Source: Eubacteriales bacterium (GTDB lineage: Bacteria; Bacillota; Clostridia; Oscillospirales; CAG-272). From it: a stretch of 24,000 bases of DNA. Numbering within the stretch: the first letter of the stretch is position 1; every line of letters begins with the position of its first letter. The notes beneath the pieces were generated by a model. That model did not search any database, was not told the DNA's origin, and was given only the letters and a program-made list of their open reading frames with translations. Below, piece by piece: positions 3,232-21,045 of the stretch. The stretch is from positions 37,578-61,577 of the forward strand of contig JAZTXK010000030.1 in NCBI GenBank assembly GCA_045636385.1, given 5' to 3'. The position numbers and the translations under genes are program-made.

Positions 3232-3340
3232 ATTTTTGCACAAAAATAAAAAAATTCCTCTCTCAATCCAACCCGCGGACGTTTACTTGACACTAACAGA
3301 TGAACGTTCAAAAAGGAATAAACCGAAAGGAGAACGCGAA

Positions 3341-6300
3341 TTGAATTATAAGACTCAAAATGACGAAACCCTCGTGATGCTGACGCTTGCGGGCGACGGG
3401 GAAGCATTCGAAGCACTTGTGCTCCGACATCAGAATGCCGTCATCGGTGCGGCGGCTTCGGTTACGCACAATCGCTTTATGGCAGAGGATGCCTCGCAGG
3501 ATGCATTCGTCACCGCGTGGATGAAGCTCGATAGCCTCTCCGAACCCTCAAAATTTCTCGCCTGGGTATGCAAGATCGCAATGTTCAGCGCGAAGAACAC
3601 CGTCCGCCGTTACCGCCCGTTCGCACCGATCGAGGATATTGAAAAGTACGCGGACGTCACCGACTACTCGCAGGATCCCGCCGAACTCTACGCGATCTCC
3701 GAGGAAAAGGAGGAGCTTCACCGCACCGTCCTCTCGCTCCCCGAGCGGGTTCGGCGCGTGATCACGCTCCACTACTTCGAGGAGCTTTCGGTTACCGAGA
3801 TAGCCGAAAAAATGCAAATTTCGGTCGGCACCGTCAAATCACAGCTCTTTGAGGGCAGACGAAAATTGAGAAAGGAACTTTGTGCAATGAATGAAAAGGC
3901 AAACGACACTCTCGTAGAGAGAGTAATGAAAAAGGTCGAGGAGCTGGAGCTCTGGCAGATCAAAAACGATAAAAGCGGCTTCGGGTCGGTCTATTCCGAG
4001 GTGCTCGCCGAAGTTGAAAACCTTCCCGAATGCAAGGATAAGTACCACGCCCTCGCCGACGTCCTCGCGCGCGGCTGGTGGTGGCTCCCCGGCAAGAAAA
4101 ACGAGGAACTCTTCGCCCGCATCAAGGAAGCGGCACTGATCGGTAAAAATGATGAGATAATGCGGTTTATCATACTGCGTGAGGCATCGGGGAAGAGCAC
4201 GGACAAGCGCGCGGACTTTATCCGTGGCGAGCAGATCCCCGAGCTTGAGAAGGCGGGCTTCGTCGGTGCGCTTGCATTTGCCCACTTCCGCCTCGGATAC
4301 AGAGATATGATGGATAAGAAATATGAGGAAAGCCGTGAGTCCTTCGGAAAGGCGCTCTCGCTCGTCGGTACGGACGACATGGTGCATGCTCTCGCATCAA
4401 ACGCGCTCATATTCCTTGATAGAATGGCAGAAGGATTCGGAGATGCGGACAAACATGATTACCGCATCGACGTCAACGCAAACAAACTGAAGATCATAGA
4501 CGGTGAGCCAAGATTCTGGAATAACGACGTCTTTGACGCGGGTTGGATGAATTCGGGCGCAAATATGGACAGTAAGCTTTTCGAAGCTGCGGGCGCTTGC
4601 GACGGTTATTTCTTCTCCGATCTTGCCGTCGCCGAGAGCTACACGGCAAGCGACGGCTCGACTCTCACCTATATTTCTGACAAAGAGCACGTCGAAGTTC
4701 CCGCAGGAGTTTTTGAGGACTGCCAAGTCTGGGAGTCGAAGGTCTATAAAAGCTGGGAGGGCACAACCTATTTCAGAGTTTATTACAAGGAAGGCGTCGG
4801 AATCGTCAAATACGAGAACAGACTCGACGGTATCATCGATACGGCTTACCTTACCTCTTATGAAATAAAAGGCGGCTCGGGTATTCTTCCTCTCGCTGTC
4901 GGCAACAAGTGGGAATATTCACTTGACGCAAAGCCCGAACATCTCAAAACGCTTGACCGATACGTGGTCACTCACTTTGATGGAGAAAGCGCCATTATCT
5001 CGGGTTACAACGAAGCCGAACGCTTGGGTTACGACGAGTCATCATGGCTTGAGATGATCGAATACGTAAGGAACAACTATTTCAAGCAGGACGAAAAGGG
5101 TAACTATCACGTTTGCGACGTTTATAGGCAGATCGATCTCACCGAAAAACTCGCAGTCACGCCGATGGAAAAGCTTCACAGCCGTGTCGCCGCATCTGTC
5201 GCCAGGCGTATTCTTGACACCAATGATACTCTGCACCCCGATACGAAAGTCATGGGGCATTGGAATTTCTTCAAAAAGTCGGCTCTGCACGAATCAAACG
5301 GCGAATATACGCTGACTTATGACAGCCGCTTCTCGTTTGAGCTCAAGCGCGGAAGCGCCGGGAATGCAGTTGACGGTCTGCTCTTCAACCATATGTACGG
5401 TATTTTGCAGGATGCGACCAAATGCCTTTGGTCGGATACTTGGGTCATCGGTGCAACTCCCGTTGTAGAATATGACTCATACGGTGAAAAGCACATCAAG
5501 ACGACGATATCCGTCGAGGATGGCGGAATCATCACTACAAAGGCGGGTACGTTTGATAATTGTATCAAGCTCTCGCTCAAAATCGACGGTATGAGGGACG
5601 GATGGTCGTACCGTGGAGGAAACAAGGAATACTACTTTGCCGAGGGAATCGGCATCGTCCGCACTGTCAACGAATACGCAAGCGGAACGAAAAACGCGGT
5701 TTATGAGCTTTCGTTCTACGAGGGTGTCGGCAAAGGATATATGCCCTTTGAGGACGGAATGGTGCGCTTCTATGAGGCGGTCAACCTCACGGACGGATAC
5801 TACGGCGCTGTGGAATACACTTATATGCGTAACGAGGATGGCGGCATCAACGTCTTTGAGGATATGACGGGTATCCGCAATATCCCCGCTCCTGTGACGG
5901 AATACGAATTCGTCGAGCGCGAGGTAATCGAGGAACAGATCTGGGATGAAAAGAAACTACCCGAGGCGCGTCTGCGTAATGCCGCAAACAATCTTCAGCT
6001 TATGCTTCACTTCCTTTCGCGCAACAGCCGCTCATGGAAATACGCGCCGAGGGGCAGAGCGTGGGCAAAATACCGCATCAAGATGATAGAAAATATGCTC
6101 CTGACCGATGAGGGCGAGATCGCTCCTGCGTGGCTCGGTGTTTATGCCGATATGCACTTTATGGCGGCTTGCACTACATTCGGATGCAAAAAGCCCGAGC
6201 TTAAGGACGAGGCTTACGCTTATCTCGAGCGTGCGTTCGAGCTTGCGCCTCGGTGGTTTAAGATCGCGGACGGTACGCTTCTCGATGTAGGCGACAGCGA

Positions 6301-6532
6301 AATTTACGGAGGCATCAAGCTCAAAAAGGGAGAGGAGAGTGTACTTATCTTACCCGACGGCACACGCGAAGCCTACGACAGCGAGTGGTTTGTCAATCTG
6401 ATGAATCCCGCACGCTTCTATAACGCTATGATCGCTCCGAAGGGTTGGGAATGGTTCAACTCGGCTCGCGATGATGAGAGATATAAGGAGTACGTCGAGC
6501 GGGCGAGAGAGCTGATGGAGAAGTATAGCTGA
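3341..6532 (+). CDS. ECF-type sigma-70 family sigma factor fused to a large (~870 aa) soluble C-terminal region of unknown function
   Basis: Region 2 (EDASQDAFVTAWMKL...FLAWVCKIAMFSAKN) and region 4 HTH (LPERVRRVITLHYFEELSVTEIAEKMQISVGTVKSQLFEGRRKL) lie in the first ~190 aa. TTG 3341 is 8 nt after AAAGGAG. The ORF then continues to 6532 with no TM-length hydrophobic stretch. Confidence 0.8.
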   Translation: MNYKTQNDETLVMLTLAGDGEAFEALVLRHQNAVIGAAASVTHNRFMAEDASQDAFVTAWMKLDSLSEPSKFLAWVCKIAMFSAKNTVRRYRPFAPIEDIEKYADVTDYSQDPAELYAISEEKEELHRTVLSLPERVRRVITLHYFEELSVTEIAEKMQISVGTVKSQLFEGRRKLRKELCAMNEKANDTLVERVMKKVEELELWQIKNDKSGFGSVYSEVLAEVENLPECKDKYHALADVLARGWWWLPGKKNEELFARIKEAALIGKNDEIMRFIILREASGKSTDKRADFIRGEQIPELEKAGFVGALAFAHFRLGYRDMMDKKYEESRESFGKALSLVGTDDMVHALASNALIFLDRMAEGFGDADKHDYRIDVNANKLKIIDGEPRFWNNDVFDAGWMNSGANMDSKLFEAAGACDGYFFSDLAVAESYTASDGSTLTYISDKEHVEVPAGVFEDCQVWESKVYKSWEGTTYFRVYYKEGVGIVKYENRLDGIIDTAYLTSYEIKGGSGILPLAVGNKWEYSLDAKPEHLKTLDRYVVTHFDGESAIISGYNEAERLGYDESSWLEMIEYVRNNYFKQDEKGNYHVCDVYRQIDLTEKLAVTPMEKLHSRVAASVARRILDTNDTLHPDTKVMGHWNFFKKSALHESNGEYTLTYDSRFSFELKRGSAGNAVDGLLFNHMYGILQDATKCLWSDTWVIGATPVVEYDSYGEKHIKTTISVEDGGIITTKAGTFDNCIKLSLKIDGMRDGWSYRGGNKEYYFAEGIGIVRTVNEYASGTKNAVYELSFYEGVGKGYMPFEDGMVRFYEAVNLTDGYYGAVEYTYMRNEDGGINVFEDMTGIRNIPAPVTEYEFVEREVIEEQIWDEKKLPEARLRNAANNLQLMLHFLSRNSRSWKYAPRGRAWAKYRIKMIENMLLTDEGEIAPAWLGVYADMHFMAACTTFGCKKPELKDEAYAYLERAFELAPRWFKIADGTLLDVGDSEIYGGIKLKKGEESVLILPDGTREAYDSEWFVNLMNPARFYNAMIAPKGWEWFNSARDDERYKEYVERARELMEKYS

Positions 6533-6553
6533 CAAATTCCGTTGATATTAATG

Positions 6554-6583
6554 AAAGAATCCGAGCCGTGGCTCGGATTCTTT
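6554..6583. terminator. Bidirectional terminator between convergent genes
   Basis: AAAGAATCCGAGC (6554-6566), CGTG loop, GCTCGGATTCTTT (6571-6583). Confidence 0.8.
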
Positions 6584-6587
6584 ATAA

Positions 6588-7379
6588 TTATAACTTATCG
6601 TGCTTGATCCCCGAATTAATGAACCCAACCTGCTTGAAGTCCTTCGGGTTATGGCGGATTATGTAGTCGATATAGGAATCGACGAGCTCGGCGGTGAAGA
6701 GGTATCCGTCGGGGGTCATGTGGCCGTGGAGGAAGAAACGCTCGTGGAATTCCTTGCCGTAAAGCGGGCCGTATTTGTAGAGGTCGATGACGTATGAGTT
6801 ATCGAAAAGCTCCGCCATTTTGTAAAGCAGATCGATCATTGCGTGGGTTATCTCCTCGCGGTCGGCTCTGTCGGAGCGCGGGAAGGTTACGAAGAAGAAT
6901 TTTGCCTCGGGGCTGATCTCCTTGTAGCGGCTGACGATCGCGCCGTAATATCCGGCGAAGGTTTCCTTGTTATTGCGCCAATCCGAGAGGTCGATGTCCT
7001 CGATCGAGCCGAGCTCCCACTTCTTGTTGTAGAGATCGTTGACTCCCAGAGCGATAACGTACGCCTGACAAGCCTTATCCTTGTCCCAGAAGCCGCGGGA
7101 CTCGGCAAAGGACTCAATATACACCTTTGCGGTCATGCCGCCCTTGGAGAAATTATAAGCCTTGAGGCCGTTCTTGCGCGCGATAAACTGACCCCAGGAG
7201 TAGTCGTAGAGGTCGTGATAATGCGCCTTGCCCGCCTCGTCGCGCGTTTCAAACTCGCCCGAGGAAAGGCTGTCGCCGATGAAACCGATAGTTCTGAATA
7301 TGCTTGTTCTGCTGTAACCCTCGACGAGTCTGTCAAGCGGCTGTTCGTTTTCGGGGTAGAGATAATTGTTCCAGTCCAT
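6588..7379 (-). CDS. SGNH/GDSL-family hydrolase (esterase/lipase-like)
   Basis: Block I GDSLSSG, block III GVND and a C-terminal HGHMTPDGY block. SD AAGGAGAA. Last gene of the operon. Confidence 0.8.
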   Translation of the reverse strand: MDWNNYLYPENEQPLDRLVEGYSRTSIFRTIGFIGDSLSSGEFETRDEAGKAHYHDLYDYSWGQFIARKNGLKAYNFSKGGMTAKVYIESFAESRGFWDKDKACQAYVIALGVNDLYNKKWELGSIEDIDLSDWRNNKETFAGYYGAIVSRYKEISPEAKFFFVTFPRSDRADREEITHAMIDLLYKMAELFDNSYVIDLYKYGPLYGKEFHERFFLHGHMTPDGYLFTAELVDSYIDYIIRHNPKDFKQVGFINSGIKHDKL

Positions 7380-7390
7380 TGTTTTTCTCC

Positions 7391-7954
7391 TTACTGCGGA
7401 TTTATAAGACCGTTTAGCAGCCAGCGTCCGTTTTTGAGCTCGAGAATGACGATGGCGCAGTTTGAGCAGACAAAATTGGTTGTATTAACGTTTGCGGAAA
7501 AAAGTATTGAGAGAGTTGTACGCAAAATGCCCGCGTGTGTGAATGCGGCAACGGTGTCGCATTCGAGCGACTTGACTTTGTCGAGAAATTCCGTGGCGCG
7601 GGCGCGGAGCTCGGCGTTGCTCTCACCGCCGAATGCAGTGAAGCCGTCAACAATCAGCTTTCTTTCTTCGGAATCGGCGGGCAGGAAGGGCTGGTGAGCG
7701 AGAGAGCCGAGGTTTATTTCACGCAAAAGCGGGGTGGTTTCGTAAACGCAACCGGGGATGGCGGTTTCTGCGGTCTTCATAGCGCGGATGAGGTCGCTTG
7801 AATAGATCTTGTCGAATTTGATACCCGAAAGTATCGGTCTGATGCCCTCGGCATCGCGCACACCCTTTTCGGTCAGATTGACCTGCGACCAACCCGTGTA
7901 ATGACCTGCGAGATTTGTCTCGCTCTCGCCGTGTCTTATGAGATAAAGCTTCAT
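7391..7954 (-). CDS. Histidine phosphatase family protein (phosphoglycerate mutase-like)
   Basis: N-terminal LIRHGESETN catalytic motif and a later THAG block. The start overlaps the upstream stop (ATGA at 7951-7954). Confidence 0.85.
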   Translation of the reverse strand: MKLYLIRHGESETNLAGHYTGWSQVNLTEKGVRDAEGIRPILSGIKFDKIYSSDLIRAMKTAETAIPGCVYETTPLLREINLGSLAHQPFLPADSEERKLIVDGFTAFGGESNAELRARATEFLDKVKSLECDTVAAFTHAGILRTTLSILFSANVNTTNFVCSNCAIVILELKNGRWLLNGLINPQ

Positions 7955-10408: not shown

Positions 10409-11539
10409 TTATTGCGAAGTTTCGGGCGTAACCGTGAGCGTTCCTCCGATACAGTGGACGGTTATGTTTAACGTCTTTTTCGCCCAATCGTTGTGCTTCT
10501 CAATGGCATCCCACTCTGCGATTGTTCCGTCATAATTAATATTAATCACTGCTTTACCGCAGTCGCGGAAGATACTTCCATTGATGCTCGTCACGCTTTT
10601 CGGGATATGAACGCTGTCGAGCTTGGCACAGCCCTCGAAAGCGTAAAAGTCTATCAAGGTCACGCCGTCGGGTATCTCGACGGTAGTAAGCTGATCGCAG
10701 TCCGTGAATATGCCGATTGAAAGCGATTTGAGATTCTTCGGGAGGGTGATATATTCGATCGCGGCATAGGCGAATGCATTACGACCGATATCGGTAATGC
10801 CGTCAGGAAGATTGATGGATTTGAGTGCCCAGCAGGTAGAGAATGCATTGTCACCGATAAAGGTTACTCCAAGCGGGAGAGATATCGTTTCAATAAGCTC
10901 GCAAGAAACAAACGCGCCGCTACCTATCGAAGTTACACCCTCGGGGATCTCGATCGCTTCGAGAGCTTTGCATCCTCGGAAAAGTCCGTCTGCAATTTCT
11001 GTCAGGTTCTTTGACAAAGTAATGCTTTTGAGCTTGGTGCAATCTTGAAAAGCAGCTGTTCCTATGCTTTTTACGCTGTCGGGAACAGAGAGTGTTCTGA
11101 TTGCATTACATCCATTAAAAGCCGAATCACCGATTTCCTCAAGCCCGTCCGAAAGATTTACGGTTTTAAGCGAAAGACAACGGTAAAATGCCTCGCTGCC
11201 TATCATTTTAACGCTTGCAGGAATCGTGACCGAGCTGATTTTTGAGAGGTTATAGAATGCTTTATCGGCTATGGCAGTAACGGGAAGATCTTTGTATTCG
11301 GCGGGAATGACGATCTCTCTGTCGCTGCATTCACCAATTCCAGAAACGGCATACACGCCGCCGATATCGGTGTATTTCAATCCTTCCGAATATGCCGCGG
11401 GCGCGTCCGTGGCTTCTTCAATTTCGAAGGTCTCGGGCGGCTCGGTGGTTTCAGCAGAGATTTCTCCGTGATCACAAGAAGTAAACAGAGAAAGAATGAG
11501 GCAAAGTAGGACTGTCAAAAATCTTCTTGTGTGCTTCAT
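10409..11539 (-). CDS. Surface lipoprotein with BspA-type leucine-rich repeats
   Basis: Signal peptide plus probable lipobox (LSLFTSC). About 10 tandem ~23-aa repeats of the form IPxxVxxIGxxAFxxCxxLxxIxL. Confidence 0.85.
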   Translation of the reverse strand: MKHTRRFLTVLLCLILSLFTSCDHGEISAETTEPPETFEIEEATDAPAAYSEGLKYTDIGGVYAVSGIGECSDREIVIPAEYKDLPVTAIADKAFYNLSKISSVTIPASVKMIGSEAFYRCLSLKTVNLSDGLEEIGDSAFNGCNAIRTLSVPDSVKSIGTAAFQDCTKLKSITLSKNLTEIADGLFRGCKALEAIEIPEGVTSIGSGAFVSCELIETISLPLGVTFIGDNAFSTCWALKSINLPDGITDIGRNAFAYAAIEYITLPKNLKSLSIGIFTDCDQLTTVEIPDGVTLIDFYAFEGCAKLDSVHIPKSVTSINGSIFRDCGKAVININYDGTIAEWDAIEKHNDWAKKTLNITVHCIGGTLTVTPETSQ

Positions 11540-12912: not shown

Positions 12913-14472
12913 TTATTCAACTAAAAGCGTAACGCTCGATTTATCGCAGATCACGGTATTATGCGCGATCTTGGCGGTTGTCTGGAGCGCGTAAGGTCCG
13001 CGGTTGTTGGTGTGGCGGACGTATAGCGGAAAAGCTGAAGATGAGACGTCGATGCGGAGCTTTTCTCCCTTTTTGATGACGAAAGCGTGCTCGTCGAAGG
13101 AGAAATCCATCTCGATCTCGTCACCCGGCTTATAGTCGGGCGCGAAATTCGAGATCTGATTGATATCGTCGCGCAGACCGTAATATCCCTCCTCCTTGCA
13201 GAGACTGAGGCGGATATAGAAGCAGGTGTCCTCGCAATCCGAGCGGACGCGGAGTTTTGCCGTCATCTTGCCCTTGACATAGGTGTCTTCCTCAAACTCG
13301 GGCGTGAAGAAGGAGAGAACGTCGTGTTGGATATTCGGCTTATGCTGCCACGCGTTGCCGCCGAAATTTGCCGAAAGTCCGCCCTTGAATTTCGCGGGGG
13401 CGTAGGGGTTATAGGTATAAGTCTTCTCCCCCTCGCCAAGCGCAAAGGTGATCGACTTTTCGGGCGCGGCGAAATCGTCGGTGCACCATTCGTTGCCGAA
13501 GAGCTTGTAATACGTGACCTTTCCGGGCTCGAAGGGAGCCGCCTCTTTGCCTCTGACCGAGTTGATCCAGCGGATATAAAAATCATTCAAGACGTCTTCG
13601 CCCGAGGGAGCGTCATCGAAGACGATCGGCTGATCGCCCTTTTTGTTGTTGCCGTGGTCATAGGGATGAACGAACAGAGCGCATTTAGCCTTCGTTTCGG
13701 GCGCGATGGCGTTCCACAGATCGAACATACCGCCCGTGTAGATGTCGTAAAATCCCGTGACGACGAGGATCGGAATATTCGCGTTCGTCATCGCACCGCG
13801 CGAATCGCATCCGCCCGCGCGGGTGTTCCAGAAATCATCGTTTCGGTCGGGATGGAGAAGAATGTCGTCAAAGCTCGGCACGCTCTCGCCGAAAACGGTC
13901 TTTGAAAAGTCGATCAGCGGGAGCATATTGTAGCTTTCGGGCTTATAAGCCTTCTCGCGGATGCTCTTGCGCTTATACATACCCACGTACCAGCCGCCGT
14001 GGAGACCTATTTTATAGAATCCGTTGCGGTAATTGCAGTTGTAGCGCTCGGTGTCCTGAACGGCAAGCACCGCGCCCTTGATGTCGTCCGCAAAGGGTGC
14101 CGTAACCTGATGGACGGTTGATTTGTAGCTGTTGCCGACGAGGTAGAGCTCGCCGTTATAGAAGGTCTGCTGACGAACCCAATTCTGTAGGAAAAGTCCG
14201 TCCTCGCGCTCGTTAATGTAGGGAATGCAATCGCCCGAGCTCTTACCCCTGCCGCGGCAATGCTGATAAACGACGGCATAGCCCTGCTCGGTCCATTTCT
14301 CCACACTCGCGGCAAAGGCATCGACGATCTCGTCCTCGGCTGAATTTTCAACCGCGTCAACGTAAGGATCGCGCCTGATAACGGTCGGAAACTTTCCCGA
14401 TTCCTCGGGAAGGCAGATTACGGTGAAAAGATCTGCTCCGTTAAATTCAAGGTATTCGTAGTAGTTTTTCAT
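12913..14472 (-). CDS. CocE/NonD-family hydrolase (X-Pro dipeptidyl-peptidase S15-like alpha/beta hydrolase)
   Basis: RRDPY, HCRGRGKSSG and GNSYKS (nucleophile elbow), plus a long beta-rich C-terminal domain typical of the family. Confidence 0.8.
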   Translation of the reverse strand: MKNYYEYLEFNGADLFTVICLPEESGKFPTVIRRDPYVDAVENSAEDEIVDAFAASVEKWTEQGYAVVYQHCRGRGKSSGDCIPYINEREDGLFLQNWVRQQTFYNGELYLVGNSYKSTVHQVTAPFADDIKGAVLAVQDTERYNCNYRNGFYKIGLHGGWYVGMYKRKSIREKAYKPESYNMLPLIDFSKTVFGESVPSFDDILLHPDRNDDFWNTRAGGCDSRGAMTNANIPILVVTGFYDIYTGGMFDLWNAIAPETKAKCALFVHPYDHGNNKKGDQPIVFDDAPSGEDVLNDFYIRWINSVRGKEAAPFEPGKVTYYKLFGNEWCTDDFAAPEKSITFALGEGEKTYTYNPYAPAKFKGGLSANFGGNAWQHKPNIQHDVLSFFTPEFEEDTYVKGKMTAKLRVRSDCEDTCFYIRLSLCKEEGYYGLRDDINQISNFAPDYKPGDEIEMDFSFDEHAFVIKKGEKLRIDVSSSAFPLYVRHTNNRGPYALQTTAKIAHNTVICDKSSVTLLVE

Positions 14473-14500
14473 AATTATACCGCCTTTTTGTTATGGGTTT

Positions 14501-14529
14501 ATTATAGCATAAATTGAGCATTTTTGCAA
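14501..14529 (-). promoter_or_regulatory. Promoter of the CocE/NonD-GH20 operon
   Basis: Minus strand reads TTGCAA (14524-14529), 17 nt, TATAAT (14501-14506), preceded by TTTATGC. Confidence 0.6.
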
Positions 14530-14586
14530 CTGTGTGGGAAAATAATATTTGAGCGTTTATTTTAATATGTGGCATTATGAATATGG

Positions 14587-14618
14587 AAAAACAGCCACTC
14601 GCGCGAGTGGCTGTTTTG
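14587..14618. terminator. Terminator of the small-protein operon (bidirectional hairpin)
   Basis: AAAACAGCCACTCG pairs with CGAGTGGCTGTTTT (13-14 bp stem). On the minus strand it is followed by TTTTTCC. Confidence 0.75.
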
Positions 14619-14677
14619 GAGTAAAAACTATTGAAATGCAAAGGGACCAATGCAAAACTAGATTCTTTGCAGAAGAA

Positions 14678-14887
14678 TTAATATCCGTTATATTGCGCTA
14701 TTGCAAGTAGTATGCCAATAACTAAAATAGCAATACCTCCAAGTAGCGCCAAAGGAGAGATTATGCTCCATTTAGCAATTTCTTTTTGCTGTTGAGGAGT
14801 AATGATTTTTTCGATTGTATGTCCGCATTTTGGACACATAACCGCTTCGTCGAGTAATTGATTTCCACATTTTTCACAATATTTCAT
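14678..14887 (-). CDS. Zinc-ribbon protein with one C-terminal TM helix
   Basis: MKYCEKCGNQLLDEAVMCPKCG (CxxC...CxxC), then ISPLALLGGIAILVIGILLAIA. SD GAGGAG. Confidence 0.7.
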   Translation of the reverse strand: MKYCEKCGNQLLDEAVMCPKCGHTIEKIITPQQQKEIAKWSIISPLALLGGIAILVIGILLAIAQYNGY

Positions 14888-14899
14888 TTATGATGCTCC

Positions 14900-15187
14900 T
14901 CACATAAAATATATCATCAATATCAAGAACAAATTAACAACAAAGCCTATTAGTGAAAACAAGCCTATTTGATTTGCTTTTCGAGGAGTTTGAGCTTGCA
15001 TTGTGCAATACAAAATCAAACCAACTATCGGTATAAAAAAGCCAAGTAAATTTAAGCCGACATTGGGCATATCAGCGGATGAATTGGCGGCTCCGATGTT
15101 GCCAACCCCATTCGCTGCGCAACCGCAGTTGGTGCACACAATGGCATCATCCACCAATTCTTTTCCGCAATGAGTGCAATACTTCAT
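14900..15187 (-). CDS. Zinc-ribbon protein with two TM helices (paralogue of 14678-14887 at the N-terminus)
   Basis: MKYCTHCGKELVDDAIVCTNCG, then LLGFFIPIVGLILYC and LFSLIGFVVNLFLILMIYF. SD GGAGGA. Confidence 0.75.
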   Translation of the reverse strand: MKYCTHCGKELVDDAIVCTNCGCAANGVGNIGAANSSADMPNVGLNLLGFFIPIVGLILYCTMQAQTPRKANQIGLFSLIGFVVNLFLILMIYFM

Positions 15188-15208
15188 AAATAGTCCTCCG
15201 CATATAAA

Positions 15209-15541
15209 TCAGTCTATTTCAACATCTACCGATGCTCTTTCAGTTTCCGGATTATATTTCCCTGTTCCTTCAAAGGTTCCTGAAACAGTTTGGTTGTATA
15301 CATCCAAAGCAGAATATGTGCCATAGAAGACAAACTCATTTTCACTAATTTCTTGAATAGTAGTAATTTGAGCCCTCGGTGCCTTGCATCCATAATTGGT
15401 TAAAGTAAAAGTAACATCCCATTCTGCTCGGTCAATAACCGCATCTTTAGGTGTCATTACTTTTGAGGGCTCTTCGCTATCGCACGCACAAGTTGAAATT
15501 AATAGAATTGCTATAAGCAAAAATATTATGCCTTTTTTCAT
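15209..15541 (-). CDS. Small putative lipoprotein, unknown function
   Basis: Signal peptide MKKGIIFLLIAILLISTCAC and a ~90-aa beta-rich mature part. SD AAAGGAGAT. Confidence 0.7.
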   Translation of the reverse strand: MKKGIIFLLIAILLISTCACDSEEPSKVMTPKDAVIDRAEWDVTFTLTNYGCKAPRAQITTIQEISENEFVFYGTYSALDVYNQTVSGTFEGTGKYNPETERASVDVEID

Positions 15542-15585
15542 AATATCTCCTTTTTAATTCAATAATTAATGGCTGTGAAGGTTAA

Positions 15586-15927
15586 TTATTTGAAATCGTC
15601 AAATTCTTCTTTTGAGAAAGTGAATTTATCTGCTTCTTCATTATATGTTGCAACCAAACCAAATTTTGCTGACATAATTTCCTTGTCGATTTTGATCGTA
15701 TATGTTCCTAAAACTGCCCATTGATTAGTTTTTGTTTCTACAACGGAAGCAATGTCTACATTTACAGGCTCGCTAACAAATCCGCCAATTCTGATACGGT
15801 AATTTGTACTTATGTATTCTGTTACTTCATCAGGAAGTCTTTCTTTCGGGGTTCGTTTTTCACCGCCACAAGCGCAAAGCGTGAAGAGCAAAACTACGGT
15901 ACAAAGTAGAGCAATAATTCTTTTCAT
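15586..15927 (-). CDS. Small putative lipoprotein, unknown function (remote paralogue of 15209-15541)
   Basis: Signal peptide MKRIIALLCTVVLLFTLCAC. It shares the ..GTY.. and ..YN.E.. pattern with the neighbouring lipoprotein. ATG 15927 was chosen over the TTG at 15957, and the SD is weak or distant. Confidence 0.65.
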   Translation of the reverse strand: MKRIIALLCTVVLLFTLCACGGEKRTPKERLPDEVTEYISTNYRIRIGGFVSEPVNVDIASVVETKTNQWAVLGTYTIKIDKEIMSAKFGLVATYNEEADKFTFSKEEFDDFK

Positions 15928-15970
15928 AGTAATTAGTATTCCTTTCAAATATACCAAATTGGGATATTTA

Positions 15971-15993
15971 TATTATACCAAAATGGTATAATA
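15971..15993. promoter_or_regulatory. 23-bp perfect palindrome (candidate XRE operator) containing both divergent -10 boxes
   Basis: TATTATACCA-AAA-TGGTATAATA. The plus-strand TGgTATAAT (15984-15992) has a weak -35 and would serve the XRE gene. Confidence 0.55.
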
Positions 15994-16000
15994 ATGTCAA
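15972..16000 (-). promoter_or_regulatory. Perfect consensus promoter of the lipoprotein/zinc-ribbon operon
   Basis: Minus strand reads TTGACA (15995-16000), 17 nt, TGgTATAAT (TATAAT 15972-15977). Confidence 0.65.
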
Positions 16001-16027
16001 GGTCTTTTGTAAAAAAAGGAGAGAAAA

Positions 16028-16237
16028 ATGGAATTTCGGCTCAAAGAATTGCGGAAAAAGCGGAATATATCGCAATTAAAGCTTGCAATCGATCTGAATA
16101 TGAATCAGAATACGATCTCGCGGTATGAAAATTTGGAGCGCGAGGCGGATTATGAAACTCTTATTCGCTTTGCGGATTATTTTGGTGTTTCGCTTGATTA
16201 TTTGCTGGGGCGAAGTAATAGCGAGGAAATAAAATAA
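16028..16237 (+). CDS. XRE-family (Cro/CI-type) helix-turn-helix transcriptional regulator
   Basis: LRKKRNISQLKLAIDLNMNQNTISRYENLEREADYETLIRFADYFGVSLDYLLGRS. SD AGGAGAG. Confidence 0.85.
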   Translation: MEFRLKELRKKRNISQLKLAIDLNMNQNTISRYENLEREADYETLIRFADYFGVSLDYLLGRSNSEEIK

Positions 16238-16279
16238 AGGAACTTTTTATGAGTAAGTCATAGAAAGTTCCTTTTATGT
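16236..16279. terminator. Terminator after the XRE gene
   Basis: AAAGGAACTTT-T-TATGA GTAAG TCATA-G-AAAGTTCCTTT forms a ~17-bp stem and is followed by TATGTATT. Confidence 0.65.
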
Positions 16280-16295
16280 ATTATGGGCAATCAAT

Positions 16296-16326
16296 TCAAT
16301 CTCGCGGAATTTTTCCGGGAGATTGA
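16296..16326. other. Strong hairpin downstream of the dehydrogenase gene (possible atypical terminator)
   Basis: TCAATCTC-G-CGGAA TTT TTCCG-G-GAGATTGA. There is no U-tract on either strand. Confidence 0.3.
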
Positions 16327-16352
16327 AGAATATCCGTAATAGCTTTTAGTTA

Positions 16353-17414
16353 TTATTTCAAAATCTCAATAATCGCATCTCCGACCTCGCTTGTGGAGGC
16401 GGTTCCGCCGAGGTCGCAGGTGAGGGTTTTGCCTTCGACCATCAGTTGCTCGATGGCGTCGATCAGGCGCGCGCCCCAATTTTCGTAGCCGAAGAAATCA
16501 AGCATCTGGCTTGCCGACCAGATGGAGGCGAGGGGATTTGCGATGCCCTTGCCCGCGATATCGGGGGCAGAGCCGTGGATGGGCTCGAACATCGAGGGGA
16601 ATTTTCTTTCGGGATTGATATTCGCGCCCGCCGCAAGTCCCATACCGCCCGCGATGGCGGCGCCGAGGTCGGTGATGATATCTCCGAAAAGATTGGAAGT
16701 AACAACGACCTCAAATCTCGCGGGATCCTTGACGAAGAACATACTTGCCGCGTCGACGAGGTAAGAGGCGGTCTTAACGTCGGGGTATTCCTTCGCGACT
16801 TCGGCAAATACGCTGTCCCAGAATACCATTGAATAGTTCAGCGCGTTGCCCTTGGAAATGCTCGTCAGAGTCTTCTTTTCCTTTCTTGCAAGCTCAAAGG
16901 CATAGCGGATGATCCTTTCGGTTCCCTTGCGCGAGAAAACTCCCGTCTGAAGAACGACCTCGTTTTCCTGACCGCGGTAGAGCCAATCGCCCGCGCCGGC
17001 GTATTCGCCCTCGCTGTTTTCGCGGATGACTATCATGTCGATGTCCTCGCATTTCGTATCTTTGAGTGGGCAGGGAGCACCGCGAAGGAGCTTGACGGGA
17101 CGGAGATTGACGTACTGATCGAACTCGTGGCGGATCTTGAGCAGCAGATCCCAAAGAGATATGTGATCGGGAACGCCGGGGGTTCCGACAGCTCCGAGAT
17201 AGATGGCGTCATACTGCTTCAGCGTTTCGATAGCATCGTCGGGCATCATTTTGCCCGTCTGCAGATAATAATCGCATCCCCAAGGGAAGTGCGTAAATTC
17301 AAATTCAAAGCCTCCGTCGAGCTTTGCAACGTGATCGAGCACGCGAACGCCCTCGGCAATGACCTCGGGGCCTATTCCGTCGCCCGCAATAACGGCAATT
17401 TTGTAGTTTTTCAT
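16353..17414 (-). CDS. Tartrate dehydrogenase/decarboxylase-like (isocitrate/isopropylmalate dehydrogenase family)
   Basis: KIAVIAGDGIGPEV, DHISLWDLLLKIRHEFDQYVNLRP, VIRENSEGEY, SNLFGDIITDLGAAIAGGMGLA and FEPIHGSAPDIAGKGIANP. ATG 17414 with SD GAGGA. Confidence 0.85.
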   Translation of the reverse strand: MKNYKIAVIAGDGIGPEVIAEGVRVLDHVAKLDGGFEFEFTHFPWGCDYYLQTGKMMPDDAIETLKQYDAIYLGAVGTPGVPDHISLWDLLLKIRHEFDQYVNLRPVKLLRGAPCPLKDTKCEDIDMIVIRENSEGEYAGAGDWLYRGQENEVVLQTGVFSRKGTERIIRYAFELARKEKKTLTSISKGNALNYSMVFWDSVFAEVAKEYPDVKTASYLVDAASMFFVKDPARFEVVVTSNLFGDIITDLGAAIAGGMGLAAGANINPERKFPSMFEPIHGSAPDIAGKGIANPLASIWSASQMLDFFGYENWGARLIDAIEQLMVEGKTLTCDLGGTASTSEVGDAIIEILK

Positions 17415-17434
17415 AGTGAAGTATCCTCTATGTG

Positions 17435-18508
17435 TTATTTTGACCATTTGATGATGTTTTCGAGCATTCTCTCGGCGGCTTCGGGGGATGAAAATCTGTT
17501 ACCGCTGAGGTAAACGCCGGTCGGATCGACGGTCTTGCAGAATTTCTCAATCTTATCCTCGTGCTTTTCGTCGAGCGCCCAGAGGAGTATGATATTCTTG
17601 CCCTTGTCCTGAATCTTTTTGAAAATGTCGAACCATTTTTCGTCGCAAAGCGGCTCTTTTCCCGCGCCGGGGTTCCATTGGATTCCGTTCAATCCGGGAA
17701 TGTCAAGGATCATATCGAGATGCGGAAGCTCTCCGATGCCGTCGAGGTGATAGACCGAACGCTCAAGATATGATGCCTGATCGATAAGCTCGGGCAGAAC
17801 GAATCTTTCAAACTGCGTGGGCGAGATCATATAGCAGAAGTCGCACTGCATCGGATACCACGGCTTTTCCGACGGAATATTCATCCAAGTGATGAAGGGA
17901 AGATCGTGCTTGCGGATGAAATCTACCTGCTTTTCGTAGGCAACGCGCGCCTCGCGGCGGACTTCCTTGGTGAAATTATATACCTCATCGGGGTAGTCGT
18001 AAAGATCGTAAAGCAGATTTTCGGTGCCGCGGAGCGACGCGACGATATCCATAATGCCGCCGAGGTCGGTTATCGAAAAGCAAACCTCGGGGTCTGCGGC
18101 AAAACGCTCCTGCATTTTTGTTACGTACTGCCACATTTCGCTCTGCTCGTCAAATTTCACGGCGGGAGGATTTTCCCAATCGGTTATGATTTGCGGTTTA
18201 TCGAACCATATCGTTTGTTTTGCAAGCTGAAATCCGCCGCCGAGGCAGGCGGAAAGACATCCGGGACCGAAGTTTGTGAAGTACCCGGGGATACCCTCGG
18301 CTAAATATTCGTAATTTGCGGAGTTGCATTTGAAGGCGTTGTAGTTATATTCCGGATCGAGCCACTTTTCCTCAAGGCTCAGGGGCGCGCGGTAGCCTAC
18401 CGCTCCCGGCTTAACATAGGAAATATTGAGTATCGGACGTCCCGTGTTTTCGCGTTTCCAGAATTTTTCATATTCCGCAAGTACGGATGCATATTTCTGT
18501 TTGAACAT
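17435..18508 (-). CDS. URO-D-like (uroporphyrinogen decarboxylase/MtaA-fold) TIM-barrel protein, function unknown
   Basis: 357-aa soluble protein. The blocks DLGGIMDIVASLRGTENLLYDLYDYPDEV and YHLDGIGELPHLDMILDIPGLNGIQWNPGAG resemble that family. The family call is tentative. Confidence 0.55.
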   Translation of the reverse strand: MFKQKYASVLAEYEKFWKRENTGRPILNISYVKPGAVGYRAPLSLEEKWLDPEYNYNAFKCNSANYEYLAEGIPGYFTNFGPGCLSACLGGGFQLAKQTIWFDKPQIITDWENPPAVKFDEQSEMWQYVTKMQERFAADPEVCFSITDLGGIMDIVASLRGTENLLYDLYDYPDEVYNFTKEVRREARVAYEKQVDFIRKHDLPFITWMNIPSEKPWYPMQCDFCYMISPTQFERFVLPELIDQASYLERSVYHLDGIGELPHLDMILDIPGLNGIQWNPGAGKEPLCDEKWFDIFKKIQDKGKNIILLWALDEKHEDKIEKFCKTVDPTGVYLSGNRFSSPEAAERMLENIIKWSK

Positions 18509-18558
18509 TTTATCTCGCCTTTCTTGGATTATATAACAAAGTGCTTGTGCTTTTTTAC

Positions 18559-18587
18559 ATTATATCACAAATTCGGGTTCGTTTCAA
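18559..18587 (-). promoter_or_regulatory. Promoter of the URO-D-like/dehydrogenase operon
   Basis: Minus strand reads TTGAAA (18582-18587), 17 nt, TATAAT (18559-18564), preceded by TTTGTGA. Confidence 0.55.
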
Positions 18588-18636
18588 TAAATTGCAGAAA
18601 ATAGCCGTGCATTTTTGCCAAAAAATTGATAATATA

Positions 18637-18665
18637 TTGACTTTATATTGCAAAAATGTTATAAT
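18637..18665 (+). promoter_or_regulatory. Promoter of the esterase/beta-helix lipoprotein gene
   Basis: TTGACT (18637-18642), 17 nt, TGtTATAAT (TATAAT 18660-18665). Confidence 0.65.
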
Positions 18666-18696
18666 AGCTTCAGATAAAAATAAGGAGGACTTCATT

Positions 18697-21045
18697 GTGA
18701 AAAAGTCTATGTTTATCCGCATTCTCTCATGCGTCATGGCAATGATCATGCTTTCGGGCACTATGCTCATGACTGCTTGTAATGACACCCCCGAGACTCC
18801 CGAGACTACTGCTCCCGCAGATACCACCTCGGCTCCCGAGACCACTGCCGCTCCCGAAACCACCGAAGCACCGTTGGTTCTCACCGAGCAGACGGTAAAT
18901 CTCAACAAGAACACCAAGGGCATCAAGATCCTCGGCGTTCGTAACCTCGCGTCCGACACCGCGATCAACGCCGACTGGAGCGCATCGGGTATCGAATTCA
19001 TCGCTACCTGTGAGGGCGATATGACCTTCGCTGTTGAGACCAGCAATGGCGCATATTTCCGCGCTTACATCGACGGCGAGCCCTATATGAACGGCGAAAC
19101 ACCTTACTTTGACATCACCGGCAAGGGCGAGATCACTCTCAAGGACATCCCGAAGGGTACTCACACCATCCGCGTGATCAAGGTCACCGGCTACACTCTT
19201 GCATTCGCGGCGTTCACCTCCGTCAAACTCACGGGTATCATCGCAGAAGAAGCACCCAAGGACAATGAGCTTTACATTGAGTTCGTCGGCGACAGTATCA
19301 CCTGCGCTTGGGGTACTATCGGCACATTTGACGGCAAGTACACCTCTCAGGACGCTACACTCGGCTACTCCTACCTCGTTGCAGAGGAGCTTGATGCAGA
19401 TTACTCCTTCACCGCGCTTTCCGGCCAGGGCATCTGCTGCGGCACTCCCGGCGTTCCCCTCGGCTACCGCTACGCTTGCTACGGCAAGGATGCCAAGACC
19501 GAATACGATTTCGCGCGCAAGGCAAACCTCATCGTTGTCAATATCGGTACCAATGACGAGACCAAGGCGATCGATCAGACTCAGTTCAAGAAGGATTTCA
19601 AGGCTTGGGTTGAGTACGCCAAGGAAAAGAACGGCGCAGACTGTAAGTTCCTCGCCGTTACCAATATGAAGAACGGCTCGTATCGCACAATCATCGAAAA
19701 GGTCTTTGAGGAGCTTGGCGGCGAGGCAGCGGGCTACTACGCATATAAGGCAGACCGTTCCCGCAACGCTACCGCTTCCTATCACCCCAGCATCGAGGAG
19801 CACGCGGCATACGTTCCCGCTATCGTTGACCTTTGCAAGAAGATCCTTGCTACTCCCATCTCCTCCACTCCCGGCACAACCGACCCCGTTACTCCCGGTG
19901 TTGACGTAACAGGTGCGATCGACCTTCCCGCAAACACCGTTGTCGTAGACGATGACTGCGACAAGGACGGCGACGTTATAGTATTCACCTTCGGCGGCGT
20001 TAAATATAAGGCAACCGTAGGTAAGGATGCATTCTACTCGCCCATGGATGCACAGAATGCAGTTACCGCGGGCGGAACTATCTTCTTCTTGCCCGGCTAC
20101 TATATGGAGAACTTCCAGGTTCAGAAGGACCTTACCCTTATCGGCCCCAAGGCAGGCGTCAGCCCCAACGTAAAGGGCGCAAATCCGACCGATGACTGGA
20201 CTCTTAACCCCGAGAGAAGCAAGGAAGAGGACGAGGCTGTCCTGATGTCCAACCTTGGTCTCGGTGTATGGAATGCTACCGTATATTCCGACTGTCATAA
20301 GATCGTTATGGACGGCTTCAAGTTCTCCCAGAACTTCCTCCTTCGCCAGAACTCGGGTAACGAGGGTGAGGTCGAGATCGAATTGAATAACATTCTGATC
20401 AGCGGAAGCACCATCACCAACAACATCCTCTTCTTTTTCCCCTACTATCCCAACGATGCGACCAACCCCGACCTCTATAAGAGACATCTGAAGATGGAAA
20501 ACGTCCGTGTTGAAGGCGTGACCGCACAGTATCTCTTCAGAATGGGCTTTGAAACTCTTGAGATCTCGGGTCTCTATATGGATTCCAAGTGCACCAAGGG
20601 CGTTGTTGAAAAGTTTGCTACTACTGCAGGTGTTGGCACCGATAAGTACGTTATCAAGGATAGTATGTTCAGAAACACCAATACCACGATATTCTCCATC
20701 AACCTCAGAAACGATCTTGCCGCTCCCAACTGGCGTCTTGATCACTTCGGCACAGATAAGAAGCAGATCGACATCGAGATCAGCGGATGCGTATTCTACG
20801 GCGAGGATCTTCCCTCCGCTCACGCACCCTGGATCATCATCAACCGCGACAGCGCGGCGGCTATCGTTCGTATCAAGGATAATATCTTCGCAAGCAATAA
20901 CACCGGATCCGTCATCGTAACCGACGAGGGCTCGGTTGAGGGCGAATACTTCTTCGCAACCGAGATTAGCGGTAACACCGTTACCGGATGCGCAGATCCC
21001 TATAAGTTCGTTGCGGCAAAGGATGCAGCACTCTTTCTTAATTAA
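18697..21045 (+). CDS. Lipoprotein fusing a CE2-like module (beta-sandwich + SGNH esterase) to a C-terminal right-handed beta-helix (pectin-lyase-fold-like) domain
   Basis: GTG 18697 is 7 nt after AAGGAGGA. Signal peptide plus LMTAC, then a Pro/Thr/Glu linker. FVGDSITCAWG (SGNH block I), NIGTND and YHPSIEEH. Then GGTIFFLPGYYMENFQVQKDLTLIG followed by repetitive N/G/I-rich beta-helix-like turns. Confidence 0.75.
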   Translation: MKKSMFIRILSCVMAMIMLSGTMLMTACNDTPETPETTAPADTTSAPETTAAPETTEAPLVLTEQTVNLNKNTKGIKILGVRNLASDTAINADWSASGIEFIATCEGDMTFAVETSNGAYFRAYIDGEPYMNGETPYFDITGKGEITLKDIPKGTHTIRVIKVTGYTLAFAAFTSVKLTGIIAEEAPKDNELYIEFVGDSITCAWGTIGTFDGKYTSQDATLGYSYLVAEELDADYSFTALSGQGICCGTPGVPLGYRYACYGKDAKTEYDFARKANLIVVNIGTNDETKAIDQTQFKKDFKAWVEYAKEKNGADCKFLAVTNMKNGSYRTIIEKVFEELGGEAAGYYAYKADRSRNATASYHPSIEEHAAYVPAIVDLCKKILATPISSTPGTTDPVTPGVDVTGAIDLPANTVVVDDDCDKDGDVIVFTFGGVKYKATVGKDAFYSPMDAQNAVTAGGTIFFLPGYYMENFQVQKDLTLIGPKAGVSPNVKGANPTDDWTLNPERSKEEDEAVLMSNLGLGVWNATVYSDCHKIVMDGFKFSQNFLLRQNSGNEGEVEIELNNILISGSTITNNILFFFPYYPNDATNPDLYKRHLKMENVRVEGVTAQYLFRMGFETLEISGLYMDSKCTKGVVEKFATTAGVGTDKYVIKDSMFRNTNTTIFSINLRNDLAAPNWRLDHFGTDKKQIDIEISGCVFYGEDLPSAHAPWIIINRDSAAAIVRIKDNIFASNNTGSVIVTDEGSVEGEYFFATEISGNTVTGCADPYKFVAAKDAALFLN
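18787..18873 (+). repeat. Low-complexity CCCGAGAC-type repeats encoding a TPETPETTAPADTTSAPETTAAPETTEAP linker
   Basis: Repeated CCCGAGACY / GCTCCCGA units are visible in the DNA. This is a typical flexible tether after a lipobox. Confidence 0.6.

Follow-up and report, generated by a model that had tools for sequence, protein, structure and literature searches.

A putative repressor-controlled cassette of small lipoproteins and zinc-ribbon membrane proteins in gut Clostridia, with a possible role in envelope protection

We analysed a stretch of 24,000 nucleotides (nt) from a bacterium of the order Oscillospirales (assembly GCA_045636385.1, contig JAZTXK010000030.1, positions 37,578 to 61,577). 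This whole stretch is called the window below, and features are located in its coordinates. It holds a cassette of five small genes: a regulator of the XRE family and, divergent from it, an operon for two lipoproteins (Lipo1 and Lipo2) and two membrane proteins in which a zinc ribbon (ZnR) precedes transmembrane (TM) helices (ZnR-TM1 and ZnR-TM2). The five-gene segment (14,480-16,350) has a GC content of 36%, against 51-55% in its flanks. GC along 14400-16400 runs at 0.335-0.41, with about 0.54 on either side, and the cassette as a whole stands at 0.359 compared with 0.511 for the remainder of the window.

The xre gene, placed from the listing of open reading frames (ORFs) and the sequence, occupies 16028..16237 on the plus strand and encodes 69 amino acids (aa). 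On the minus strand the operon runs in the order Lipo1 (15586..15927, 113 aa, start MKRII), Lipo2 (15209..15541, 110 aa), ZnR-TM1 (14900..15187, 95 aa) and ZnR-TM2 (14678..14887, 69 aa), with intergenic gaps of 44, 21 and 12 nt. A GGAG-type ribosome-binding site precedes each of the five genes. A longer, TTG-initiated Lipo1 ORF (15957) was rejected: it would cross operator O2, described below, and homologues begin at the MKK/MKR codon. The operon ends at an intrinsic terminator (14588..14617, minus strand; 13-bp stem, 4-nt loop, U5), which a consensus scan had missed and which was found by RNA folding: a 106-nt stretch has a folding energy of -30.5 kcal/mol (z = -5.78), and none of 200 shuffled sequences was as stable. 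An A-run on the far side of the stem makes this terminator potentially bidirectional, and it is predicted to insulate the four-gene operon from the downstream Peptidase_S15 gene. A promoter-like site (TTGCAA-17-TGnTATAAT, 10/12 matches; 14501-14529, minus strand) lies past the operon terminator and just upstream of Peptidase_S15; transcription of the latter is probably independent of the cassette. On the other side, a terminator-like hairpin (16236..16274, plus strand; 17 pairs, only 4 of them G-C, then a T-rich tail) lies 3' of xre.

The control region between the two units is compact. The operon promoter (15972..16000, minus strand) combines TTGACA, a 17-nt spacer and an extended -10 element, TGnTATAAT, with 12 of 12 consensus matches; it is the sole perfect consensus site in our scan, in which a rough estimate would expect about 0.004 by chance per 2 kb. 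Two operator-like palindromes lie in tandem in this shared region. O1 (15971..15993) reads TATTATACCA-AAA-TGGTATAATA, with perfect 10-nt arms, and O2 (15947..15969) reads AAATATACCAA-A-TTGGGATATTT, with 11-nt arms that are 91% complementary; O2 spans the point where transcription of the operon is predicted to start, together with the first part of its leader. In O1 the -10 element of the operon promoter makes up one arm, and the other reads TGgTATAAT on the plus strand (15984..15992), about 36 nt upstream of the xre start, back-to-back with the operon promoter and overlapping it. This second element, read from the sequence and lacking a good -35, can plausibly serve xre as an extended -10. Both palindromes hold ATACCA-N3-TGGTAT-like cores, for which the rest of the window offers only one chance match, with two mismatches.

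Related loci (153, cited here by L numbers) were classified with ORF profiles built in this analysis, the 67 provirus loci of the XRE query being left unclassified. From the -35 hexamer through the spacer and -10 hexamer to O1 and O2, the control region is virtually unchanged across the window and three further loci, L150, L001 and L106. L106 has other cargo opposite an XRE of this type (79 aa), namely a 417-aa protein with a zinc ribbon and seven TM helices and a ZnR-TM1 homologue. In L005 another XRE subtype (66 aa), again divergent, is accompanied by different tandem palindromes, TACAC...GTGTA. The promoter-operator motif had no match in a scan of viral contigs, and Rfam returned chance-level matches only for the region. 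In this phylogenetic footprint the regulator, its twin operators and the strong promoter move as a single unit. Repression of the operon and autoregulation by XRE through the predicted operators is the straightforward reading, and that the segment is a regulated cassette appears very probable.

The regulator matches HTH_3 (PF01381) at 56.5 bits against a gathering cutoff of 23 (E = 2.8e-15) and phrog_8 at 1e-25, and consists of a Cro/C1-type helix-turn-helix (HTH) domain only, without a sensor domain. The closest solved structure is that of the ICEBs1 Xre-family regulator (PDB 7T8I, 1.1e-9); in PADLOC only a generic HTH match was returned (Control_protein, 3.9e-6). Proviruses are rich in relatives at 36-57% identity, which we judged to be generic HTH similarity. 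The ratio of nonsynonymous to synonymous substitution rates (dN/dS) of xre is about 0.1.

Both zinc-ribbon proteins match Zn_Ribbon_1 (PF13240; cutoff 25 bits), ZnR-TM1 at 28.3 bits (1.4e-6) and ZnR-TM2 at 30.1 bits (4e-7). An N-terminal four-cysteine ribbon is followed in ZnR-TM1 by a two-TM hairpin and in ZnR-TM2 by a single TM helix, and the two share the ribbon only (55% identity over 22 aa, E = 1e-9). The ZnR-TM1 family, with 71 homologue clusters, conserves the ribbon MKYCxxCG...CxxCG and the hairpin motif D.P..G...LGFFIPIVGLILY...P.KA..G. Among 36 aligned members, Zn_Ribbon_1 is matched by all 36, PLDc_N by 11 (best 3.4e-5) and DUF4190 by two (5e-7); the window protein itself passes Zn_Ribbon_1 only, with no match to the PLDc_N (PF13396) or DUF4190 (PF13828) profiles. 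The family is modular, and its members may bear additional ribbons or TM bundles, or an ectodomain at the C-terminus. Two-TM hairpin genes stand in tandem, as three or four paralogues, in L085 (115-1441), L108 (1291-2637) and L105 (356-4201), the last including long fusions of a ribbon, 7-8 TM helices and a hairpin. ZnR-TM2 aligns with TcaA (NF053815) over ribbon and TM helix only, at 23.7 bits (1.9e-5), far below the 550-bit cutoff; its sole PADLOC match, to a Cas12f ribbon, is at chance level (E = 0.08). For the ZnR-TM proteins there are weak matches to phrog_16989, which carries the annotation 'moron ... membrane protein', and among solved structures nothing related was found beyond generic ribbons.

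The two lipoproteins belong to a very small orphan family. As read from the sequence rather than by a dedicated predictor, both have a signal peptide and a lipobox (...LFTLCAC|GG in Lipo1, ...LISTCAC|D in Lipo2). Lipo1 has 25 homologue clusters in an index of 5.8 billion proteins and Lipo2 three. A profile built from the mature domains of both, used in an exhaustive search of 1.84 billion representative proteins, found 23 at E <= 1e-3. Of the 17 that were retrieved, 15 are lipoproteins of 109-132 aa whose leader reads MKK...LSLCACG; two are aberrant, in that one diverges after residue 73 and the other has no leader. Invariant across the family are the lipobox cysteine, the glycine of a GTY motif and one tyrosine. 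Full-length Lipo1 and Lipo2 are 23% identical (E = 5e-5); for the mature domains alone, profile-to-sequence E-values lie between 1e-5 and 5e-8 and hhalign gives a probability of 68%. Intermediate family members bridge the two and their predicted strands coincide in position, which points to a paralogy that is real but distant. The AlphaFold (AF2) model of Lipo1, with a mean predicted confidence (pLDDT) of 87.4, shows a helix at 27-42 after the signal peptide and then four long antiparallel strands, consistent with a minimal NTF2/cystatin-like fold in which the helix packs on a curved four-stranded sheet. The Lipo2 model is weaker (pLDDT 65.6) and places four strands at positions matching those of Lipo1. 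With Foldseek, the top matches of Lipo1 in the PDB are NTF2-like, VirB8 and cystatin domains (TM-scores 0.3-0.5, none at E < 1e-3), and the best among viral models (BFVD) are unnamed proteins of 108-123 aa (E = 3.5e-3, again none below 1e-3). Profile and sequence searches found no Pfam or NCBIfam family and no PDB sequence relative for either lipoprotein, and matches to O_Spanin_T7, LytA and GerS were dismissed as covering signal peptide and lipobox only. Over its full length Lipo1 matches phrog_17892, of unknown function, at 2e-7. A profile scan of genome contigs with Lipo1 gave two loci only, and exact-sequence look-ups of the window's Lipo1 and ZnR-TM1 found no contig on record. Named relatives are limited to one Oscillospiraceae metagenome-assembled genome and one Faecousia metagenome-assembled genome, and the host lineage is probably a genus of Oscillospiraceae.

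The original prediction for this segment, a model's reading of the letters alone, stood up well as regards architecture. The self-contained AT-rich segment with gaps of 44, 21 and 12 nt is confirmed by the ORFs, the sequence and the GC profile, and the separate terminators proposed for the two units correspond to the hairpin at 16236-16274 and the folded stem at 14588-14617. A perfect TTGACA-17-TGnTATAAT promoter had been read at what are indeed 12 of 12 consensus positions (16000..15972, minus strand), and the shared palindromic control region resolves into O1 and O2. The two small lipoproteins had been called paralogous, which holds for distant paralogues (E = 5e-5, with intermediates), and the kinship seen between the N-termini of the membrane proteins with two and one TM helices is that of the 22-aa ribbon. 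Profile searches and layout likewise support the general picture of duplicated small envelope proteins without an enzymatic domain under repressor-type control.

The same gene families recur together elsewhere. A tandem of ZnR-TM1 followed by ZnR-TM2 forms the conserved core, present in the window, L001, L007, L009-011, L012, L149 and L150-153, and Lipo1 lies upstream of this pair in the window, L001, L007, L149 and L150-153. Lipo2 is missing from L001 and is found in L005 and L150-153. L005 has the order XRE, Lipo2, Lipo1 and a 155-aa protein with four TM helices, and in L148 a distant lipoprotein of the family precedes the same 4-TM protein. Two further genes lie beside the ZnR-TM1/ZnR-TM2 pair in L009: one (6809-7432) encodes a 207-aa protein in which a zinc ribbon is fused to the 4-TM domain of L005 and L148, the other (6510-6749) a 79-aa lipoprotein whose mature part carries CxxC...CxxC, resembling an extracytoplasmic zinc ribbon. 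The regulator varies too. L007 has a ribbon-helix-helix (RHH) protein in place of XRE, and in L092 (1636-3042) and L094 (5328-6673) a divergent, CopG-like RHH gene is followed by ZnR-TM1 and then one to three paralogous lipoproteins. These lipoproteins, of 117-161 aa, share the motif '...YE(L/F)TAG.Y..P.D.P.GKYD...' and are not detectably related to Lipo1 or Lipo2, apart from one borderline match to the Lipo1 profile (E = 8e-4). In about ten distinct loci (L073-077, L083, L088, L095, L096, L114-116, L132) a divergent small XRE gene lies 64-134 nt upstream of ZnR-TM1, and these loci usually continue with a second ZnR protein that has one TM helix and bears an ectodomain. Because of such fusions and partner swaps across loci, the lipoproteins, ZnR hairpins, ZnR single-pass proteins and 4-TM proteins appear to be functionally linked. 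Co-occurrence in other genomes, which the original prediction had made a touchstone of its module, is thus found in L001, L005, L007, L149 and L150-153, and profile searches place none of the proteins in a characterised housekeeping family, an outcome that the prediction had named as one that would refute it. Type II toxin-antitoxin pairs were seen a few kb from the cassette in L001 (ParE/RelB, 4527-5146) and in L005 (Phd/Fic, 5737-6362); the window has no such pair.

Comparison of the flanks gives the cassette a chromosomal address. Its neighbours in the window include Peptidase_S15, GH20, a leucine-rich-repeat (LRR) protein, Iso_dh, GDSL lipases, MatE and Epimerase_2. One flank is collinear with L001 through Peptidase_S15, GH20, Exo_endo_phos, Phosphodiest, His_Phos_1, a GDSL lipase and a sigma-70-fusion protein, and the other through MatE and Epimerase_2. 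Between xre and MatE the window has Iso_dh, a 357-aa protein with no Pfam match and an 834-aa GDSL-domain protein (16353-21045), none of which is present at the corresponding site of L001, with MatE directly next to xre there; this comparison points to an indel at the cassette border. Iso_dh also abuts xre in L150-153, metagenome contigs whose reach takes in only that one of the three genes. In these loci, which stand for at least 24 metagenome contigs, an identical five-gene cassette lies between Iso_dh and Peptidase_S15. Identity to L001 is 72-95% for flanking proteins and 66-88% for cassette proteins, and all five genes show purifying selection (dN/dS 0.04-0.40), with frames intact in three lineages.

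Other signs speak of exchange. The cassette is more AT-rich than its host in 10 of 10 loci, by 1-18 GC points, the soluble XRE gene included. Synonymous divergence (dS) between the window and L150 is 0.28 for Lipo2, 0.13 for ZnR-TM1 and 0.05 for ZnR-TM2 (window 14678-15541; L150 2225-2734 and 1871-2203), compared with 0.45-0.72 for Lipo1, XRE and the flanking Peptidase_S15 and Iso_dh genes. Since the dS of the distal half is so far below that of its surroundings, the estimate, rough for genes this short, indicates that this half was recently replaced by recombination. AT-richness, swapped regulators and lipoproteins, and the distal-half recombination together point to an exchanged gene pool.

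Links to phages are few. Relatives of ZnR-TM1 occur on 55 IMG/VR contigs, of which three were inspected and one proved not to be phage-like. One suggestive context is L023, a provirus in an isolate genome (IMG 646206276), whose lysogeny module holds a ZnR-TM1 homologue of 47% identity; by tblastn this homologue found one unannotated 5-kb record. The gene order in L023 (4119-8607) is a cro-like XRE, a cI-like XRE, an ImmA-like HExxH protein, a SHOCT protein, the two-TM ZnR hairpin, two small genes and an integrase. In Gram-positive temperate phages the interval from repressor/ImmA to integrase is the classical place of exclusion genes and morons. In L008 a lone Lipo1 homologue abuts a terminase-small-like gene (phrog_2538, 4.8e-6). 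Only these two relatives adjoin phage genes. The defence-island or prophage setting about which the original prediction had asked is absent from the window, with L023 and L008 as the exceptions among relatives.

Several known systems resemble the cassette in part. Ltp of Streptococcus thermophilus TP-J34 and Sie2009 of lactococcal P335 phages are superinfection-exclusion proteins encoded in prophage lysogeny modules. They share with the cassette the pairing of small lipoproteins or membrane proteins, devoid of enzymatic domains, with a Cro/CI-type repressor, and further common ground lies in the position of the L023 homologue between cI/ImmA and integrase and in the AT-rich, exchangeable composition. 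The cassette proteins, however, have no sequence or profile similarity to annotated Sie proteins or the Ltp family, the window contains no integrase or phage genes and the cassette is chromosomally syntenic across lineages, and its cargo is divergent from the regulator and apparently repressed by it rather than co-expressed. With restriction-modification C proteins and ImmR-type repressors the cassette has in common a small HTH-only XRE (Control_protein, 3.9e-6; 7T8I, 1.1e-9) and two adjacent palindromic operators in the promoter region of the regulator's own gene, which implies autoregulation. It differs in that neither a restriction endonuclease or methyltransferase nor an ImmA protease is encoded nearby in the window, that its operators overlap a divergent consensus promoter instead of an upstream C-box or activation site, and that the cargo consists of envelope proteins. 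The enterococcal cytolysin locus pairs a 66-aa HTH-only XRE, CylR2, with a small membrane protein, CylR1. Compared by description (homology was compared for the generic HTH only), it matches the cassette in having a sensor-less repressor of about 66-69 aa, a palindrome at a divergent promoter and small membrane partners, but CylR1 lacks a zinc ribbon and shares its transcript with CylR2, and the cargo there, unlike here, is a lantibiotic operon. Type II toxin-antitoxin systems with an XRE antitoxin differ from the cassette, whose partner genes are divergent and belong to no known toxin family.

At the level of single proteins, Firmicutes zinc-ribbon membrane proteins have the same N-terminal MKYCxxCG...CxxCG ribbon directly before their TM helices. 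In TcaA the part that aligns with ZnR-TM2 is residues 1-76, and ZnR-TM2 lacks the large ectodomain of TcaA; none of the TcaA, PLDc_N and DUF4190 families offers an established mechanism for transfer to the window proteins. Small NTF2- or cystatin-like lipoproteins and VirB8-like domains resemble Lipo1 in predicted fold, with no match at E < 1e-3. Literature searches on DUF4190, on zinc ribbons with superinfection exclusion or XRE, and on TcaA and YdjG returned no description of the module; YdjG was dropped as a lead, the pspA-samGHI paper assigning the zinc finger to SamI and not to the membrane proteins. The kinds of component, that is XRE repressor, lipoproteins and zinc-ribbon membrane proteins, are known; the cargo belongs to no described family or system, and the combination of a small regulator, a ZnR hairpin and a variable lipoprotein or ectodomain was not found in profile libraries or searchable literature.

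We propose that XRE dimers bind O1 and O2 and repress both the operon and their own gene, so that the operon would be kept low and strongly expressed once repression lapses. The four products would act at the cytoplasmic membrane, with the ZnR hairpin and the ZnR single-pass protein as the core. Their ribbons would face the cytoplasm and very little of either protein would be exposed outside, and the two NTF2/cystatin-like lipoproteins may be exchangeable, outward-facing binding subunits. Whether the four form a physical complex is evenly balanced. The cassette would stem from an AT-rich pool, horizontally exchanged in gut Clostridia, that combines a small regulator, a ZnR-hairpin anchor and a variable lipoprotein or ectodomain. 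Its likeliest job may be envelope protection, either by excluding the entry of phage DNA or by conferring immunity to a membrane-targeting peptide or toxin. We favour protection because one homologue lies in a lysogeny module, PHROG matches exist even if weak, the cassette is AT-rich and exchangeable, paralogues form arrays and no enzyme is encoded; metabolism and cell suicide seem less likely. Two further hints are the terminase-like neighbour of the Lipo1 homologue in L008 and the closeness of XRE to the regulator of the ICEBs1 element. Taken by itself the protective function is rather doubtful, and the reading as a whole, a repressed membrane cassette with an envelope-protective role, is the best explanation we have, held tentatively.

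A number of observations weigh against it. PADLOC (PADLOC-DB 2.0) has no family for Lipo1, Lipo2 or ZnR-TM1. Lipo1 and ZnR-TM1 of the window had no tblastn match in GenBank phages, nor did ZnR-TM1 in plasmids (where Lipo1 was not searched), and the Lipo1 profile found no relative on IMG/VR viral contigs. Our searches brought up no homology to characterised exclusion, immunity or defence proteins. The original prediction of phage exclusion, abortive infection or immunity has in its favour the L023 lysogeny module and the terminase-like neighbour in L008; the searches of defence models, phages and plasmids just described brought it no match. Across the 24 kb of the window there is no integrase, transposase, phage or defence gene. 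The 44 distinct ZnR-TM1 loci have 121 neighbours, in which Zn_Ribbon_1 (10) and HTH_3 (3) are the Pfam families found most often, the remainder being mostly housekeeping, with two resolvases and no enrichment for phage or defence genes. In L009 and L012 the ZnR-TM1/ZnR-TM2 pair stands without an adjacent regulator or Lipo1/Lipo2-family protein, and therefore the regulator and lipoproteins of this type are optional. Because the same flanks occur in L001 and L150-153 and the genes are under purifying selection, the cassette is best seen as a stable chromosomal resident of the lineage, not a recent islet. The strain-variable insertion envisaged at the outset did not hold up, with the same flanking genes in L150-153 and synteny in L001; conservation with the same flanks, which would speak against an accessory islet, extends to at least two related lineages, a partial result. 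Finally, envelope protection leaves the conserved cytoplasmic zinc ribbon unexplained.

These facts lend themselves to a plainer account, in which the cassette has no part in conflict and serves to maintain the envelope in a lineage-specific way: the ZnR hairpins would be general small membrane adaptors and the lipoproteins accessory binders, and the low GC content would come from small, weakly constrained, hydrophobic genes rich in Lys and Asn. A model is at hand in zinc-ribbon membrane proteins such as TcaA, for which a part in cell-wall or lipid homeostasis has been suggested. Stable synteny and purifying selection in three related lineages, the mostly housekeeping neighbours across 44 loci, a sigma-70 promoter and 24 kb free of mobile-element genes all fit, as does the weak resemblance of ZnR-TM2 to the N-terminal ribbon and TM helix of TcaA (1.9e-5, far below cutoff). 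Composition does not: the gene for the soluble XRE equals those for the membrane proteins in AT-richness, so hydrophobicity fails to explain it. Moreover, a lipoprotein family with 23 members in 1.84 billion proteins is too rare for general upkeep, and regulator swaps, paralogue arrays and recent recombination of the distal half fit an accessory, exchanged module. We regard maintenance as credible but rather unlikely.

The conserved ribbon is accounted for if the cassette is a membrane-tethered signalling device, in which cytoplasmic ribbons bind the sensor-less XRE, to sequester or release it, and a cue from the envelope or from outside the cell is sensed by the lipoproteins or ectodomains, forming a sensory feedback circuit. 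Such logic would resemble that of CylR1/CylR2 or of LytTR regulators with membrane inhibitors, and small PLDc_N-type membrane proteins, such as YxlE of Bacillus subtilis, help to regulate a transcription factor. That XRE is an HTH domain only agrees with this scheme, as do the recurrence of at least two XRE subtypes and of RHH proteins divergently upstream of ZnR-TM operons in distinct loci, the cytoplasmic ribbon being the most conserved part while outward-facing partners vary, and the conservation of a portable regulator-operator unit with ZnR cargo. However, no output regulon is visible, the operator motif being confined within the window to this one control region; many ZnR-TM1/ZnR-TM2 pairs have no adjacent regulator (L009, L012), HTH_3 accounting for 3 of the 121 neighbours; and whereas CylR1 is co-transcribed with its regulator, the membrane partner here is the repressed cargo. 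The contact between ribbon and XRE is itself hypothetical. This main competing reading strikes us as unlikely.

A very strong promoter under a small repressor, small hydrophobic products and an XRE that resembles HTH antitoxins and controller proteins at the domain level could also describe a toxin-antitoxin or abortive-infection system, in which the ZnR-TM proteins are holin-type, depolarising toxins silenced by XRE and loss of the repressor kills or arrests the cell. It is hard to reconcile with ZnR-TM genes that often occur alone or in arrays of 3-4 genes without a regulator (L085, L108, L009, L012). No known toxin family was matched in Pfam, NCBIfam or PADLOC, the regulator is divergent instead of co-transcribed with its partner, and the lipoproteins would have no role; we hold it to be improbable. 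The least probable reading takes the segment for a functionless leftover, repressor and early genes, of the regulatory region of a prophage or mobile element now decayed; this would suit the AT-rich composition, the XRE of mobile-element type and the weak PHROG matches but not five intact frames in three lineages (dN/dS 0.04-0.40), the conserved promoter, operators and terminators, or the lack of further phage remnants nearby.

Elsewhere in the window, three features deserve a record. A 1098-aa protein (3236-6532, plus strand) fuses N-terminal regions 2 and 4 of a sigma-70 factor of the extracytoplasmic function (ECF) type to tetratricopeptide-repeat (TPR) and DUF3108-like regions, and this sigma factor with its large C-terminal extension is conserved in L001 at 1063 aa. 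A BspA-type LRR protein (10409-11539, minus strand; LRR_5, 2.8e-72) is encoded amid genes for glycoside hydrolases and peptidases. A pair of long ORFs, 18541-21045 (plus) and 18727-20823 (minus), overlap in opposite orientation; only the plus-strand one has a Pfam match, to Lipase_GDSL_2 (9.4e-8), which covers a small part of that ORF.

The Oscillospiraceae of the gut are numerous and hardly tractable, and annotation is lacking for most of the small proteins of their envelope. For these bacteria the present analysis defines an orphan lipoprotein family, a widespread ZnR hairpin family with a recurring gene partnership, and a compact, conserved repressor-operator-promoter unit. It is possible, if somewhat unlikely, that they exemplify a type of modular envelope system in gut Clostridia that has not been described before, built from a portable regulator/twin-operator/promoter unit, a conserved, cytoplasm-facing ZnR-hairpin anchor and interchangeable, outward-facing lipoproteins or ectodomains, which would act as a new kind of exclusion or immunity device at the membrane or as an anti-repressor sensor with the zinc ribbon as common signalling or assembly element. 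If the role is ordinary envelope upkeep, the gain would be a modest one in annotation. A sensor would provide a function for the N-terminal 'MKYCxxCG' ribbon that is so widespread in membrane proteins of Firmicutes, and phage exclusion or immunity would reveal a layer of defence missed by current tools such as PADLOC. The consensus promoter with its twin operators could, in addition, serve as a genetic part for gut Oscillospiraceae.

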